Of a stretch of 54,125 bases of DNA, positions 1 through 49,079 are shown piece after piece. This DNA is from an uncultured bacterium (GTDB lineage: Bacteria; Patescibacteriota; Minisyncoccia; Phycocordibacterales; Phycocordibacteraceae): the NCBI GenBank assembly GCA_947085505.1, contig CAMTWI010000003.1, positions 73,319 to 127,443 on the forward strand. Direction: 5' to 3'. The notes below the pieces were generated by a model. That model saw nothing but the letters and a program-made list of their open reading frames with translations, made no database searches and had not been told where the DNA came from. The translations under genes and the position numbers were made by a program. How positions within the stretch are numbered: the stretch's first letter is position 1; the number at the start of each line of letters is the position of its first letter.

Positions 1-1602
1 ACCATCCTGCGCCATAGTAAGGAATCCTTGGCGACGAACCGACTTCGCAATCTCTCCCTCACTCGGATTCTCTCGTAGGAAGTTGCCAAGTTCGTCGTCC
101 ATGAATATTGCTTCATGCACACCCGCACGCCCTTTGTATCCAGTCTCTTCTTCGCTCTTTGGGTCAGGTACCCATACCATATCGAGTGACGCTGGAAGGA
201 GGCTCTTGTCCTCAACAGTTGAAAGTACCTTTTCCATCATCTTCTTCTGCTCGTCTGTAGCTGGTACCTGCTTCCTTGCATCCGGATCAAGTGTGCGCAC
301 GAGACGTTGGGCCATAGCAACAGAGACTGCAGACGCGAAGGTCTTCGGATCAACACCGAGATCAACAAGGCGAGGGAAGGTGCCGGCCGCGTTGTTTGTG
401 TGGAGCGTAGAGAAGACGAAGTGTCCAGTAAGAGCGGCCTGCACTGCCGTTGTGGCAACCTCTGCATCACGCACCTCTCCAACCATAATTACGTCAGGGT
501 CTTGGCGAAGTACCGAACGAAGTCCTGAGGCGAAGGTGTACTGCTTGCCATCAGTCTGGGTCTGCACAATACCGGGAAGGTGATACTCAACTGGGTCTTC
601 AATCGTAACGATTTTGATTTCGGGAGTATGAATATGACGGAGGAACGCATAGAGCGTTGTTGTTTTTCCCGATCCAGTTGGTCCGGTAACCAGGAGCATG
701 CCGGTTGGGCGCGTAATCTCAGTCTTGAGTCGCTCAAGAAGATTCTCCCTAATACCAAGTTTTTCAAAGGAGACCCCGAGAATTCCTGGATCGAGAATAC
801 GCATAACGAACGACTCGCCGTATGCGCCAGGGATGAGTGAGGTGCGAATTTCAACTTCACTATCGCCAACAGGCACCGAAAAGCGGCCGTCCTGCGCACG
901 GTCCTTAATATTTATCTTGAGTCCCGAGAGGAGCTTGATGCGGGATGCGAAGAGATTGTACGTGTGTGCGTCGAAGGTGTATGCATCAATAAGCGAACCA
1001 TCTACACGGAGTCGTAACCTAATACCGGTTTCTTCCGGTTCGATATGAATGTCTGATGCTTTCATGGCGAATGCGGTTGCGAGAATGAACTCAAGCACGC
1101 GCGATACCTGTGCACGAGCACCGGCTTTAAGGGTCTCGTTGAGTTGAGTGCGGAGTGCCGCAAGGCTCGTGAGTGTTCCGCGCAGTTCGTGAAGTTCCTC
1201 GCCCCTAATATCAAAGACACCTGCTTTTGATTCACTTGCGAGGGAGAGCTCGACGTAACGTGCGTACGCCTTGTCGAGTGATTTTTTTGAGACCAAGAAG
1301 CGAGAGAGGATGAACCCCTGACTTTCGAGCGCGTGCTCGATCTGCGCAAGTGCGATGTTGCTCGGATTCCGAAGTGCAATTGAAAGGTGCTTACCGGTTT
1401 TCTCAAACGCTACTACTTCGGCCTCACGCGCCTCTTTCTCAGGGATAAGTCGAAGCGCATCCACATTAAGCGGCATGATAGTGAGGTCGGTATAGGTGAG
1501 TCCGTACTTCTCGGACAGTACACGTGCTAGGTCCTCCTCTTCTTGTTCACGTAAAGACGCAAGTTTTGCGTCTTCAGCATCGGTATCAAAATGTGCAGGC
1601 AT
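1..1602 (-). CDS. pilB: Type IV pilus / type II secretion assembly ATPase (PilB/GspE family), 3'-partial
   Basis: Hand translation of the minus strand; absent from the ORF track because it runs off the window. Motifs: Walker A MLLVTGPTGSGKTT (~660-700), VTIEDPVEYH, LRQDPDVIMVGEVRD and C-terminal GFLTMAQDG. ATG at 1602 (alternative 1611). Confidence 0.9.
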   Translation of the reverse strand, partial: MPAHFDTDAEDAKLASLREQEEEDLARVLSEKYGLTYTDLTIMPLNVDALRLIPEKEAREAEVVAFEKTGKHLSIALRNPSNIALAQIEHALESQGFILSRFLVSKKSLDKAYARYVELSLASESKAGVFDIRGEELHELRGTLTSLAALRTQLNETLKAGARAQVSRVLEFILATAFAMKASDIHIEPEETGIRLRLRVDGSLIDAYTFDAHTYNLFASRIKLLSGLKINIKDRAQDGRFSVPVGDSEVEIRTSLIPGAYGESFVMRILDPGILGVSFEKLGIRENLLERLKTEITRPTGMLLVTGPTGSGKTTTLYAFLRHIHTPEIKIVTIEDPVEYHLPGIVQTQTDGKQYTFASGLRSVLRQDPDVIMVGEVRDAEVATTAVQAALTGHFVFSTLHTNNAAGTFPRLVDLGVDPKTFASAVSVAMAQRLVRTLDPDARKQVPATDEQKKMMEKVLSTVEDKSLLPASLDMVWVPDPKSEEETGYKGRAGVHEAIFMDDELGNFLRENPSEGEIAKSVRRQGFLTMAQDG

Positions 1603-45572: not shown

Positions 45573-45649
45573 ATACGTATTCTAGCACCGCACCAGATTC
45601 GGTGCGTACCGGAAAGCCTTTTGTCTGCTTGTCTAATAACGTTGTTGCG

Positions 45650-46522
45650 ATGATGTCCTATGGGACATATACTGACCTTGACGCAATAAAGGACATCATG
45701 AGCGATAAAGGACAGAACAGGGATTCGCATGCGATGAAGGCATATAAAAACAATGCTGACTTTAGTGATTTTGTCCTTGATAAACCAATATTCTCAGGAG
45801 TATTTGAAAAGGACATTAGACGCGTATACCTTTACAAGAAGGCTGAGCGACTCGCGAAAGCCATCCATCTAATCAGTCCAGCATTCGCAGAGTCACCTGC
45901 GTTAAAGGACCGGATTGAACGCATCGCACTCGGTCTTGTCGATGCTTCCGTACTTCCTCCAACTACATCGCGTGACGCACTCTCACGTGAGCTTCTTGCG
46001 CTCTCAAGTATTCTTTCAATTGCACGCACCGGAGGTATGCTGTCGAGCATGAACGCAGATCTCATTGTACGAGAAGCCCATCAGCTGCTTTCAGAGATCG
46101 TAAGCTATGAAGAACCTCGTCTGGTACTCGATGAGATTCCGTCTCTCGCGTCACTTGCGAAAGCATCTGCGGTGAGTGAATCCCGTGAGCGAAGCAGTCT
46201 CCGATCAGTTGCGCGCATCACATATGATTCGGATCTTGGTGCCCATGACATCGCTGAGTATAAAGGACAGTCTAAAGGACACATAAAGGACACATCCAAA
46301 ACAGACGTATCTTCAGCACAAAAGGGAAGTACTAATGGAGATCGTCGAGAGAGTATCCTCGCGGTCCTGCGCTCGAAGGGTCCTTCCTATATAAAGGATA
46401 TCTCCATGATTGTGCGCGACGTAAGCGAGAAAACTATACAGCGAGAACTATCCGGTTTAGTCACTGAAGGGGTTGTGAAGAGGAAGGGGGATCGCCGCTG
46501 GACTACCTACGAGATGGCTTAG
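45650..46522 (+). CDS. Four-helix-bundle plus C-terminal DeoR-like winged-helix protein (start uncertain: 45650, 45698 or 45734)
   Basis: Helical N-domain LYKKAERLAKAIHLI...LKDRIERIA; low-complexity linker; wHTH RRESILAVL...IKDI...VSEKTIQRELSGLV...G. Confidence 0.75.
   Translation: MMSYGTYTDLDAIKDIMSDKGQNRDSHAMKAYKNNADFSDFVLDKPIFSGVFEKDIRRVYLYKKAERLAKAIHLISPAFAESPALKDRIERIALGLVDASVLPPTTSRDALSRELLALSSILSIARTGGMLSSMNADLIVREAHQLLSEIVSYEEPRLVLDEIPSLASLAKASAVSESRERSSLRSVARITYDSDLGAHDIAEYKGQSKGHIKDTSKTDVSSAQKGSTNGDRRESILAVLRSKGPSYIKDISMIVRDVSEKTIQRELSGLVTEGVVKRKGDRRWTTYEMA
45687..46292 (+). repeat. TAAAGGACA direct repeats in two clusters
   Basis: Exact 9-mer at 45687, 45706, 46261, 46273 and 46284; the 7-mer core AAGGACA also at 45809 and inverted at 45772. 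Confidence 0.85.
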
Positions 46523-46540
46523 TTTCGCGTGAAGGCTTCA

Positions 46541-46569
46541 TTGACGAAAACCTTAAATAAGCTTATTAT
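46541..46569 (+). promoter_or_regulatory. Sigma70-type promoter upstream of the long leader
   Basis: TTGACG-17 nt-TATTAT. Confidence 0.65.
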
Positions 46570-46648
46570 ACTGAGCGTGGTAACTGCAGGGAGCTAGGTG
46601 TTCTAAACGGCCGGAAACGGTCTGTTTTGCGTTTAGCTGAAAACACGG

Positions 46649-46657
46649 TTATCCACA
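46649..46657 (+). promoter_or_regulatory. Consensus DnaA box
   Basis: Exact TTATCCACA match; function not shown. Confidence 0.45.
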
Positions 46658-46705
46658 ACGTTTTTGCAGGGTCTATCGCTCGTATCTCTGTATACTAGGT
46701 ATACA

Positions 46706-47000
46706 CCCGCGCGTTCGGTTCTATCCGAACCGCGGGATTCTGAAACGGCTGATACGACCCTGAAAGAAGGGATCCTTGATAAAGGAATAGTGAACAAAAG
46801 TCCTGCGGTGTAAGAACCTGCAGGCACACCCGTCTTCATGAACAGACGGGTGCCTGAAACGGATGCTTTTGATAGAAATGGATGAACGCTTGAATGAATG
46901 ATCATTCGCCAACTAGCCGATGGGACGCTCGTCGATAGTGCGCCCTGTCGGATAGTGTGAACCGTTCGAAAACTCACTCCCTTCCTCTCGGGGAGGGGAG
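46706..47000 (+). ncRNA. Candidate structured RNA / long 5' leader of the surface-protein gene
   Basis: Series of GC-rich hairpins at 46706-46736, 46821-46856, 46917-46951 and 46977-47000; no convincing ORF. Confidence 0.5.
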
Positions 47001-47088
47001 GAGATTACAAAGAGAGATTAAAGGTGCGTACGCGATACGAATTATTACTAGACGTACCGCGCACGTACTTCAACTACTTACAAAAAAT

Positions 47089-48978
47089 ATGATTGCAACT
47101 AGCAACACAATGATCGCGAAGATCTTCGCAGCTCTTGCTGTCGCAGGACTCGTTCTTGGTTCGTTTGCAGCACTTGCTCCAGTAGCAGGCGCTCAGACCA
47201 CGACCACGACGACGACTAGCGGAAGCACGACTACGGCACTTACGTTCATGAACGACCTTACGGTTGGTTCGACTGGAGTCGCGGTAACGTCTCTCCAGAC
47301 TTTCCTCATCGCTAAGGGTTTCAGCATCCCAGCTGGCGCAACCGGATACTTCGGTTCACAGACTAAGGCAGCTGTCGCAGCTTATCAGTCTGCTAACGGT
47401 ATCTCACCGGCTGTAGGTTACTTTGGCCCGATCACTCGCGCTCATGTAAACGCAGCAGGTCCGTCTACTGGTGGTGGCTCTAGCACAGTTCCTGGCTGTT
47501 CAGCCGGCGCTGCGTTTAGCTCCACTACAGGTGCTCCTTGCTCCGGATCTGGCTCTGGTTCTACCAGCGGTCTTTCTGGAGGCGAGGCTCGCCTCTCTTC
47601 CTTCGAACTTCGCCGCGAGGCATCTGATGGTTCAGAAGGACAGGTAGAGGTTGAGGTAGCAACAGCTGAGTTCGATGTTAAGGATGGCGACGTTCGCGTC
47701 GAGCGCATCGAGCTTACTGTTGAGGCTGCTTCTAGCACCCTTAGCATGCTTCCATGGAACTACATCGACCGCGTGTCCGTATGGGCAGACGGCGATGAGC
47801 TTTCTGACAAGCGTTCTACCTCGCGTAGTGACTGGAGCAAGTCCGGAAACAAGTACACGATTGTGCTCACTGACCTCGACTATGTAGTTGATGCAGGAGA
47901 CACAGCGGCACTTACTTTCGCCTTCGACATTAACAGCAGAATCAGGGTCGCAGATCTTTCCCAGACGTTCACCGTCTCGGTCCGCGATAGCGGAGTTCGT
48001 GCTGTTGATAGCAAGGGCATCCAGCAGTACACCGGAGCAAATGCTAAAACTGTATCCTTCGGCTTCAACGCTGAGAAGAACGGAACACTCCGTCTTAGCC
48101 TCAGCAGCAGCAACCCTGCTGCAGCTATTCTCGTCGCAGACGCGAATAAGGAATCAGGTAAGTACAGCGTGTTCAAGTTCGATATCGAGGAGCGCGATGA
48201 TGTGGACACCCTCATCACCGACGTCACTATCGATGTTGCAACAAGTTCTGGCACTGTAATGAATGACATCCGAAACGCGTACCTCGTCATCGATGGTGAT
48301 GAGTTCCGTGGAACAGTCAATGCCGCCGGCACTATCACGTTCGACGCTGTCGACGTTGAGGTTGGAGGTAAGGACAAGATCCAGGCTGAGCTCAAAATCA
48401 CTCTTGCGCGCGCCGCAAATGCAGGATCACTCACGTTCTCTCTTGACGCTGATGACCTCGTTGCTGAAGGTGTAGACAGTGGAAACGCTTCTACGGTTAC
48501 CGGTTCTGCGGACGGAAAGACTCACACAACGGCTCTCTCTGGTATCGCAGCTAAGGCAGTATCCACCAGTCAGTCTGTATCGACTCCTGGTTCTGCAGCC
48601 TCTTCAACCATCGGTACCTACACCATTAGGTTCGACGTAACAGCTCTTGAGGACAATGCATTCATCGACGATGTTGCAGCTTCCTCAACTACTGAGGGTG
48701 CAGGATTTGTTATCTTCGGTGACAGCTATGCTGGAACCATCTCAGCAATCCTCACCTCGACTGCTACGCTTGATGGCGGTACACGCTACATCGTTCGACA
48801 GGGCACTACCGAGACGTTCACGCTCACGGTAACGCTTGACCCATCAGCTGCAGGCACCTTCGGTGTTCGCCTTGATAAGGTTAGGTTCGCTGCTACAAAC
48901 GCGACTGCAACTGCAGGCCTCACGATTGATGCAAGCAACCAGGACTTCCGCACCAACGCGGTCTACATCGCTAACTAA
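47089..48978 (+). CDS. Large secreted cell-surface (S-layer-like) protein with a peptidoglycan-binding-like domain
   Basis: Signal peptide, T/S/G linkers, DLTVGSTGVAVTSLQTFL...TGYFGSQTKAAVAAYQ...GYFGPITR (PG_binding_1-like), a Cys pair and beta-rich repeats. Confidence 0.8.
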   Translation: MIATSNTMIAKIFAALAVAGLVLGSFAALAPVAGAQTTTTTTTSGSTTTALTFMNDLTVGSTGVAVTSLQTFLIAKGFSIPAGATGYFGSQTKAAVAAYQSANGISPAVGYFGPITRAHVNAAGPSTGGGSSTVPGCSAGAAFSSTTGAPCSGSGSGSTSGLSGGEARLSSFELRREASDGSEGQVEVEVATAEFDVKDGDVRVERIELTVEAASSTLSMLPWNYIDRVSVWADGDELSDKRSTSRSDWSKSGNKYTIVLTDLDYVVDAGDTAALTFAFDINSRIRVADLSQTFTVSVRDSGVRAVDSKGIQQYTGANAKTVSFGFNAEKNGTLRLSLSSSNPAAAILVADANKESGKYSVFKFDIEERDDVDTLITDVTIDVATSSGTVMNDIRNAYLVIDGDEFRGTVNAAGTITFDAVDVEVGGKDKIQAELKITLARAANAGSLTFSLDADDLVAEGVDSGNASTVTGSADGKTHTTALSGIAAKAVSTSQSVSTPGSAASSTIGTYTIRFDVTALEDNAFIDDVAASSTTEGAGFVIFGDSYAGTISAILTSTATLDGGTRYIVRQGTTETFTLTVTLDPSAAGTFGVRLDKVRFAATNATATAGLTIDASNQDFRTNAVYIAN

Positions 48979-49042: not shown

Positions 49043-49079
49043 AGCAAAAAACCCCACGGTACGCCGTGGGGTTTTTGCT
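49043..49079 (+). terminator. Intrinsic terminator
   Basis: AGCAAAAAACCCCACGG-TACG-CCGTGGGGTTTTTGCT. Confidence 0.85.

Follow-up and report, generated by a model that had tools for sequence, protein, structure and literature searches.

We analysed a window of 54,125 nucleotides (nt) taken from a 515-kb assembly in four contigs of a bacterium of the Paceibacteria, within the candidate phyla radiation (CPR), and we describe here the gap located between a gene encoding a DeoR-like winged-helix protein and a gene encoding a secreted protein with a PG_binding_1 domain. In our interpretation, to which we attribute a probability of about 0.6, this gap is a composite control region followed by a long cis-acting structured 5' leader of the gene of the secreted peptidoglycan-binding envelope protein. 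The public relatives of the source genome carry the labels Candidatus Paceibacterota, Parcubacteria or Kaiserbacteria. The locus comprises three parts:

46523-47088, plus strand: gap of 566 bases (control region and leader), between the regulator gene and the PG_binding_1 gene
45602-46522, plus strand: upstream gene of 306 codons, DeoR-like helix-turn-helix (HTH) winged-helix protein, with weak matches to HTH families only
47089-48978, plus strand: downstream gene with its ATG at 47089-47091, secreted PG_binding_1 protein of 629 amino acids, defined by its open reading frame (ORF) and a match to Pfam PF01471

The element is kept as a single copy in a fixed synteny, and a diverged form of it is present in other families of Paceibacteria. 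The gap was detected by BLAST in nine relatives of the genus, where the order is always FtsK (minus strand), regulator (plus strand), gap and large ORF (plus strand). Other copies were found with R1, a covariance model of 60 nt representing the 3' domain of the element. R1 matches 170 of the 201 species of the genus (130 of 141 among the high-quality genomes); exactly one copy is present in 169 genomes of the genus and two copies in one further genome. In a sample of 401 genomes covering the order, R1 also matches three that belong to other families. The regulator gene, searched by tblastn, adjoins the element in 42 of 42 distinct loci. The PG_binding_1 gene was found in 38 of these loci, and three of the other four are truncated; it is always located directly downstream of the element and on the same strand. 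Two sets of loci were used in the comparisons below. A search with the regulator protein recovered 506 relatives among the species representatives, of which the best 80 were examined (66 close and 14 distant, the latter with 27-35% of protein identity), and 87 loci were picked by the 3' domain alone.

The gap is non-coding. The variable columns of its alignment are distributed as 91/84/87 by phase, which corresponds to an absence of codon periodicity, and 13 of the 92 insertions or deletions are multiples of three. The presence of a hidden small gene was ruled out on these two grounds.

The plus strand of the gap folds with a minimum free energy (MFE) of -205 kcal/mol, against -161 +/- 6.8 kcal/mol for dinucleotide shuffles (z = -6.5). 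The z value of the minus strand is similar, so that folding energy alone cannot designate the transcribed strand. The strand is indicated by the 3' domain, a long hairpin whose alignment contains 79 distinct copies. In this alignment, 93.8% of the cells are paired and changes on both sides are observed in 14 of the 21 pairs; one position is represented by GC in 38 sequences and by CG in 30. The covariation score is 0.42, against 0.20 for shuffled alignments (0 of 500 reach 0.42) and at most 0.09 when the partners are slid by 1-3 columns. The scores of R1 are of 60-85 bits for the plus strand and stay under 25 bits for the minus strand, and many pairs of the domain are G-U. This difference of score and the G-U pairs indicate that the RNA is made from the plus strand, and, as judged from the substitutions in these alignments, selection acts on the plus-strand transcript.

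RNAalifold predicts 106 pairs in the alignment of the eight closest relatives, distributed among a 5' rod, a GUAUAC hairpin, a hairpin at 46706-46736, a UCCUU-GAUA-AAGGA hairpin, two hairpins named C and D, the 3' domain and two tail hairpins named E and F. When MAFFT and RNAalifold were applied to the whole genus, the consensus structures were empty, because the stems are too diverged. A second covariance model (R2, hairpins C and D) was too narrow, with 15 matches, and was replaced by a per-sequence fold around anchors, with a shuffled control.

No family of Rfam 15 matches the gap at the gathering threshold. With E values up to 10, three matches at chance level were obtained, of 16-17 bits against thresholds of 40-90; HgcC (17 bits, E = 0.22) is such a chance match. 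No match was found in 14 homologous loci either. ARAGORN detects eight tRNAs in the window and no tRNA or transfer-messenger RNA (tmRNA) in the gap. An identity as RNase P RNA is ruled out: in 37 of 41 relatives, RF00010 matches elsewhere in the genome, and the genomes G017, G020, G021 and G024 carry both this RNA and the element. Our literature searches recovered no description of the element, nor of structured leaders in CPR bacteria. A reading of the window made previously from its letters alone (hereafter the sequence-only reading) had recognised no riboswitch, tmRNA, signal recognition particle or RNase P consensus and had proposed a novel structured RNA, to be checked by an Rfam covariance search and by covariation among homologues. 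The search, run on the window and on the 14 homologues, and the compensatory changes in 14 of the 21 pairs of the 3' domain agree with this proposal: the RNA is structured and has no match in any Rfam family. The element constitutes a well-defined new RNA family that can be curated from the seed alignments A2/A4, A6 and A8. There is a negligible probability that the gap encodes a template or spacer RNA for a diversity-generating retroelement, as no pair of template and variable repeats links the gap to the neighbouring genes and no Pfam reverse transcriptase match was found in the four neighbouring ORFs scanned.

The 5' part of the gap contains signals that are recognisable at the DNA level:

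46541-46569, plus strand: conserved sigma-70 promoter P1, with -35 TTGACG (46541-46546), a 17-nt spacer and -10 TATTAT (46564-46569); 10/12 in the consensus scan
46649-46657, plus strand: perfect DnaA box TTATCCACA, exact consensus, invariant
46664-46696, plus strand: promoter-like P2, with TTGCAG (46664-46669), a 21-nt spacer and TATACT (46691-46696)

Among the loci selected with the 3' domain, 74 of 87 have the pattern TTGAC(t/g)-16..18-TAnnnT of P1 at the same place; among the in-genus-like loci recovered with the regulator protein, 54 of 62 do. The predicted start of its transcript is ~G46577, the first paired base of the rod. In several relatives (e.g. L051 and L042), the P1 spacer contains a small palindrome, GGCC-N6-GGCC or AGGCC-N6-AGCCT, which is inconsistent across the genus and could be an operator.

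The DnaA box is exact in 87 of the 87 loci picked by the 3' domain and in 74 of the 80 loci picked by the regulator protein (62/66 close and 12/14 distant), and in these 74 loci it is located ~100-150 nt after the stop codon of the regulator gene. The 515-kb genome contains three perfect DnaA boxes, all of them intergenic. One is at the dnaA promoter (G000:C3:64240-64290, ~9 kb before the start of the window), where the -10 hexamer TATACT is fused to the box (GTATACTTATCCACACGATG) and the dnaA ATG is found 3 nt after the box; this arrangement would imply autorepression and a nearly leaderless dnaA mRNA. Another box (G000:C2:50290-50470) belongs to a gap with a very high AT content and precedes by ~140 nt a mini-gene of the minus strand, which encodes a Lys/Ala-rich, histone-H1-like peptide. 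A replication origin at the gap described here was considered and rejected: it has a single box and no AT-rich unwinding element, and dnaA is ~55 kb away.

Of the 62 in-genus-like loci, 61 have the hexamer TATACT of P2, and in 57 of these it follows the box by 29-34 nt; a -10 hexamer is found at this same distance in 10 of 11 distant loci. In the distant lineages the hexamer is TATAAT, with TTGAAA, TTGCAG, TTAACA or TTGCCA 16-18 nt before it, and 4-5 of the six -35 positions match in 9 of the 11 loci. As judged from these hexamers, P2 is a canonical promoter in the distant lineages, and the box immediately precedes its -35. In three distant loci, P1 is itself contiguous with the box or overlaps it (TAGAGTTATCCACA), an arrangement seen also at dnaA. 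The predicted start of the P2 transcript is ~46703, 3 nt before the hairpin 46706-46736.

Downstream of P1, the leader is composed of the following parts, from 5' to 3':

46577-46656, plus strand: 5'-terminal rod of the P1 transcript (MFE fold, RNAalifold on own clade)
46577-46585 with 46647-46656, plus strand: basal helix of the rod, GUGGUAACU with GGUUAUCCAC
about 46593-46602 with 46629-46638, plus strand: middle helix of the rod
46609-46622, plus strand: apical hairpin of the rod, GGCCG-GAAA-CGGUC, then UGUUUUGCG; terminator-like in the scan
46690-46704, plus strand: hairpin GUAUAC-UAG-GUAUAC (MFE fold, RNAalifold)
46706-46736, plus strand: hairpin CCCGCGCGUUCGG / CCGAACCGCGGG, at the 5' end of the predicted P2 transcript (MFE fold, RNAalifold)
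46740-46748, plus strand: first copy of CUGAAACGG, conserved block (alignments A1 and A8)
46773-46786, plus strand: small hairpin UCCUU-GAUA-AAGGA, overlapping the next block
46774-46790, plus strand: conserved block CCUUGAUAAAGGAAUAG (alignments A1 and A8)
46802-46824, plus strand: hairpin C, CCUGCGG / CUGCAGG, loop UGUAAGAAC, conserved as YGUAAKAA
46821-46856, plus strand: hairpin D, core ACCCGUCU / AGACGGGU (46828-46835 with 46844-46851) and CAGGC (46821-46825) with GCCUG (46852-46856)
46854-46862, plus strand: second copy of CUGAAACGG, after hairpin D
46869-46888, plus strand: second UUGAUAG..AUGGAUGAACG block, conserved in long-type alignments
46903-46962, plus strand: 3' domain, long hairpin with the loop GUCGAUA (46931-46937) and the flanks UUCGCCAACUAGCC ... 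GGAUAGUGUGAA (R1, covariation)
46977-47000, plus strand: hairpin E, CUCCCUUCC-UCUC-GGGGAGGGGAG (MFE fold, RNAalifold)
47003-47008, plus strand: GAUUAC word, between hairpins E and F
about 47023-47068, plus strand: hairpin F, loop AAUUAUUACUAGA, stem with compensatory changes (MFE fold, RNAalifold)
47069-47091, plus strand: A/U-rich stretch without Shine-Dalgarno motif, then ATG (ORF, alignments)

The stems announced by the sequence-only reading at 46706-46736, 46802-46824, 46821-46856, 46917-46951 and 46977-47000 are all found again at these positions, the fourth being the inner helix of the 3' domain. Its repeated modules are likewise present, with CUGAAACGG at 46740-46748 and 46854-46862 and a further GAAACGG at 46614. 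The motif GAA(A)CGR is observed 1.24 times per leader against 0.29 in shuffles, a four-fold enrichment, and is absent from 31 of 82 copies.

Concerning the rod, its cap is GGCCG-GAAA-CGGYC in the relatives, and two species have an extra hairpin in place of the tetraloop. In the basal helix, the DnaA box forms the 3' strand. The predicted beginning of the P1 RNA, GUG(G/A)UA(G/A)C, is complementary in several registers to GUUAUCCAC; the duplex between this 5' end and the box has a mean energy of -9.7 kcal/mol (-4.7 for shuffles), and in 53 of 65 sequences it pairs better with the box than any other part of the domain. Two other pairings were rejected: a helix joining 46662-46666 at long range to the sequence that precedes the ATG, which has no compensatory support and is regarded as spurious, and a pairing between the start-codon region (AUUACC) and the beginning of the P1 RNA, which is feasible in some species and not in this one.

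In the central part, stems differ among relatives and particular words are retained. The hairpin 46706-46736 is an insert of ~35 nt confined to the closest clade, in which its stems covary while differing in sequence. The anchor UUGAnAA..GAAUAG is present in 58 of 82 distinct sequences and is also visible by eye in distant lineages. Hairpin C has on average 8.8 base pairs (bp), against 5.0 bp with shuffled arms. Its stems are unrelated across species (CCUGCGG, CCACGG, GAACACUUC, CGCGAGU, CUUAUGG, GGCAUAU and others) and its loop is kept; compensatory pairs are observed in the own-clade alignment. In hairpin D, the 5' arm YCGUC is conserved, and the region forms a direct repeat with 46733-46751 (79% of identity). 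ACGGAUG-like words occur twice in the block 46869-46888. RNAalifold proposes that GGAUG pairs with UAUCC of the DnaA-box RNA; both sides are invariant, so that no covariation signal is possible. The short-type species lack the 120 nt that separate GAAUAG from the 3' domain; a single hairpin stands there instead, with a different sequence in each species. In L047, from the same genus, an insert of ~90 nt expands the variable hairpin situated between GAAUAG and the 3' domain, which indicates that the loop of this short-type hairpin tolerates large insertions.

The 3' domain is the best-conserved part of the RNA. The layout of the tail that follows is also conserved, with hairpin E, GAUUAC and hairpin F with its loop UUAUUACUA. 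Hairpin E (CUCCCUUCCUCUCGGGGAGGGGAGG, 46977-47001) is identical in all eight closest relatives, and unrelated hairpins occupy its place in other clades; in the present sequence, a GGAGG-rich arm pairs with a CCUCC-rich arm. The word AUUAC recurs unpaired in the tail, as GAUUACnAA after hairpin E, in the loop UUAUUACUA of hairpin F (47044-47048), and, in many relatives, immediately before the start codon (CAUUACC-AUG); it may act as a binding word present in several copies. The relatives also conserve the A/U-rich stretch that precedes the ATG. We had considered the missing Shine-Dalgarno motif as a meaningful feature of the leader, and this was abandoned: among 318 long ORFs of the same genome, motifs of this kind are found upstream of 17.6% of the first ATGs, against 21% at random positions. 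The motif is not enriched before genes genome-wide, and its absence before the PG_binding_1 gene is therefore normal here. Shine-Dalgarno-led initiation seems not to be used in general by the source organism.

The terminators bear on the relation between RNA and gene. The scan of the gap detected one terminator-like site, the apical hairpin of the rod at 46609-46622 (GGCCGGAAACGGUC then UGUUUUGCG), which is conserved; in the extended rod, its U run is paired to a run of A situated upstream. Between this hairpin and the ATG, no terminator or further promoter was seen. The element thus lies between a promoter and the ATG of the envelope gene, on the same strand, with no terminator after the 5' domain. 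These data can be compared with the hypothesis of a free-standing gene for a trans-acting non-coding RNA of ~390 nt (46577 to ~46962 or 47000), whose 3' end would be produced by processing and which would be upstream of the envelope gene by chance. Its own conserved promoter, its large size and its very highly conserved 3' domain are what such a gene would display. The same position and strand relative to the same gene, maintained even in families that are otherwise diverged, are however not expected from it, nor are the absence of a terminator-like site between the 3' domain and the ATG, the conservation of the tail hairpins and of the stretch before the ATG, or the lack of a visible promoter proper to the PG_binding_1 gene. 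We consider this hypothesis as rather improbable.

A region acting purely as DNA, with promoters and operators for DnaA and the winged-helix protein and with hairpins that would be incidental inverted repeats, is very improbable. The unrelated stems in which pairing is kept, the many G-U pairs and the strand asymmetry of R1 need a plus-strand transcript, and the loops vary in length, unlike those of protein-binding palindromes. These observations outweigh the fixed spacing of the invariant box and TATACT, the invariance of these two strands while their pairing partners vary, and the regulator gene that is always adjacent, all of which a DNA-level region would explain.

More consideration has to be given to a ligand- or protein-sensing leader, similar to a riboswitch or to an autoregulatory operator, whose core would switch between folds to control read-through or translation. 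The sequence-only reading had deduced a switch from the overlap of the stems 46802-46824 and 46821-46856. The 4 nt that they share (CAGG) are indeed common to hairpins C and D in this genome, but the overlap is of 0-4 nt in the relatives and is not conserved beyond the closest clade, so that it represents weak evidence for a switch, to which conservation gives no support. The other candidates for alternative pairing are the GGAUG words, complementary to the RNA of the box. The invariant loops and junctions and the highly constrained 3' domain would also suit a sensor, whereas no known aptamer matches and the element is far larger than known riboswitches; as for the terminator-like hairpin of the 5' domain, it precedes the conserved core instead of following it. 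A sensing leader appears to us unlikely, although less so than the two preceding hypotheses.

The interpretation as a composite control region and structured leader, the simplest model compatible with all these observations, can then be stated as follows. P1 and P2 would both contribute to a single mRNA, whose leader would measure 512 nt from P1 and ~386 nt from P2. DnaA would sit between the promoters, at ~-49 of P2 and ~+75 of P1; it would tie the transcription of the envelope gene to the replication state and, when bound, may also block elongation from P1. Both predicted transcripts start at or near a hairpin: the +1 of P1 is the first paired base of the rod and the +1 of P2 is 3 nt before the hairpin 46706-46736. 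With these predicted starts, this is the classic layout of a 5' stabiliser. As in S-layer mRNAs, the 5'-end hairpins and the compact leader would shield the mRNA against degradation requiring a free 5' end. The 3' domain and the loop words UUGAUAA..GAAUAG, GUAAGAA, GAAACGG and GUCGAUA would form a docking site for a factor tuning stability or translation, which would begin in the unstructured A/U-rich stretch, without Shine-Dalgarno motif. The leader probably stabilises the mRNA and binds a factor. The sequence-only reading had already suggested the leader of a surface-protein mRNA, and this is the option that best fits the constant gene, the common strand and the absence of a terminator after the 5' domain; the signals at the DNA level, P1, the DnaA box and TATACT, had escaped it.

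Several observations weigh against this interpretation. The best matches to a -35 of P2 reach at most 3/6 in 58 of the 61 in-genus-like loci, and no recognisable -35 was found at 16-18 bp from TATACT in this genus (TTGCAG being here at 21 nt); P2 may consequently be inactive here, or fully dependent on an activator. If it is active in this genus, it would need an activator or may be weak. The binding of the box by DnaA rather than by another protein is predicted from the sequence and from the identical box at the dnaA promoter of this genome. The U-rich run after the apical hairpin could make the output of P1 mainly a short RNA. Finally, the 3' domain and the loops are conserved in sequence far beyond the needs of a passive stabiliser, and a binding partner is expected for this reason.

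A more specific proposal can be formulated tentatively, with the odds against it. The core, extending from the P2 start through the UUGAUAA..GAAUAG junction and the GUCGAUA hairpin, would represent a large cis-regulatory RNA of a new class, restricted to Paceibacteria and serving as a platform or sensor for a protein (perhaps the winged-helix neighbour) or a metabolite. Together with a promoter gated by DnaA, it would couple the synthesis of a major envelope protein to the cell cycle in bacteria with a very small number of transcription factors, and the pairing between the 5' end and the RNA of the box would be part of the circuit.

Concerning the neighbouring genes, the 629-amino-acid protein contains a signal peptide, a Thr-rich linker and the PG_binding_1 domain, and its N-terminus is kept among the relatives (M..IAK.AAV.AGLGLVA). 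The FtsK gene is located further upstream of the regulator gene, on the opposite strand. The word TAAAGGACA occurs inside the regulator gene (45687-46400) in five exact copies and five copies with one mismatch; when up to one mismatch is allowed, it has 26 matches in the whole window, where 8.6 are expected. It was rejected as a motif of the leader, where the best match is 7/9 (46781-46789) and is not conserved. On the 3' side of the PG_binding_1 gene, the positions 49047-49076 correspond to a perfect hairpin of 13 bp between an A run and a T run (AAAAACCCCACGG/CCGTGGGGTTTTT), likely a bidirectional terminator.

Gene regulation is almost unstudied in the CPR, or Patescibacteria, which encode few regulators. 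The element is among the largest conserved non-coding features of these genomes of 0.5-1 Mb; nearly all the members of a genus that exceeds 200 species possess it, it can be recognised across other families of Paceibacteria, and it accompanies, along with a dedicated regulator gene, the gene of a secreted protein that binds the wall. If our interpretation is true, ~400-500 nt of folded RNA would be devoted to the control of one envelope protein, the replication initiator DnaA would be wired to envelope synthesis, and the same nine bases would serve as DNA operator and as RNA helix.

Promoters regulated by DnaA through a high-affinity box near the -35 or the -10 include those of dnaA and nrdAB in E. 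coli and of the DnaA regulon in B. subtilis. The locus described here shares with them a consensus box at a fixed distance from promoter hexamers, the perfect TTATCCACA being upstream of the -10 of P2. It differs from them in that the target is an envelope-protein gene, in that the binding of DnaA is predicted, and in that the box is transcribed from an upstream promoter, its RNA copy being paired with the 5' end of the transcript.

With the large structured non-coding RNAs OLE, GOLLD, HEARO, ROOL and raiA, which were discovered by comparative genomics and are all in Rfam, the element has in common a length of several hundred nt, many covarying helices and a restriction to one lineage. It has no sequence or structure match with any of them. 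Contrary to these RNAs, it is tied to one downstream gene, which argues for a role in cis.

The S-layer genes of Lactobacillus possess long stabilising 5' untranslated regions and two promoters (PMC3666127). The leaders of slpA and the element are both found upstream of the gene of a secreted envelope protein, with a tandem pair of promoters and a stem-loop at the 5' end (both predicted in the element) and no coding capacity. The element is much larger and more constrained, with 386-512 nt, at least nine helices and invariant loop words; it contains a DnaA box, is followed by no Shine-Dalgarno motif, and its hosts are CPR bacteria. It may likewise stabilise the PG_binding_1 mRNA, and the envelope protein may be highly expressed.

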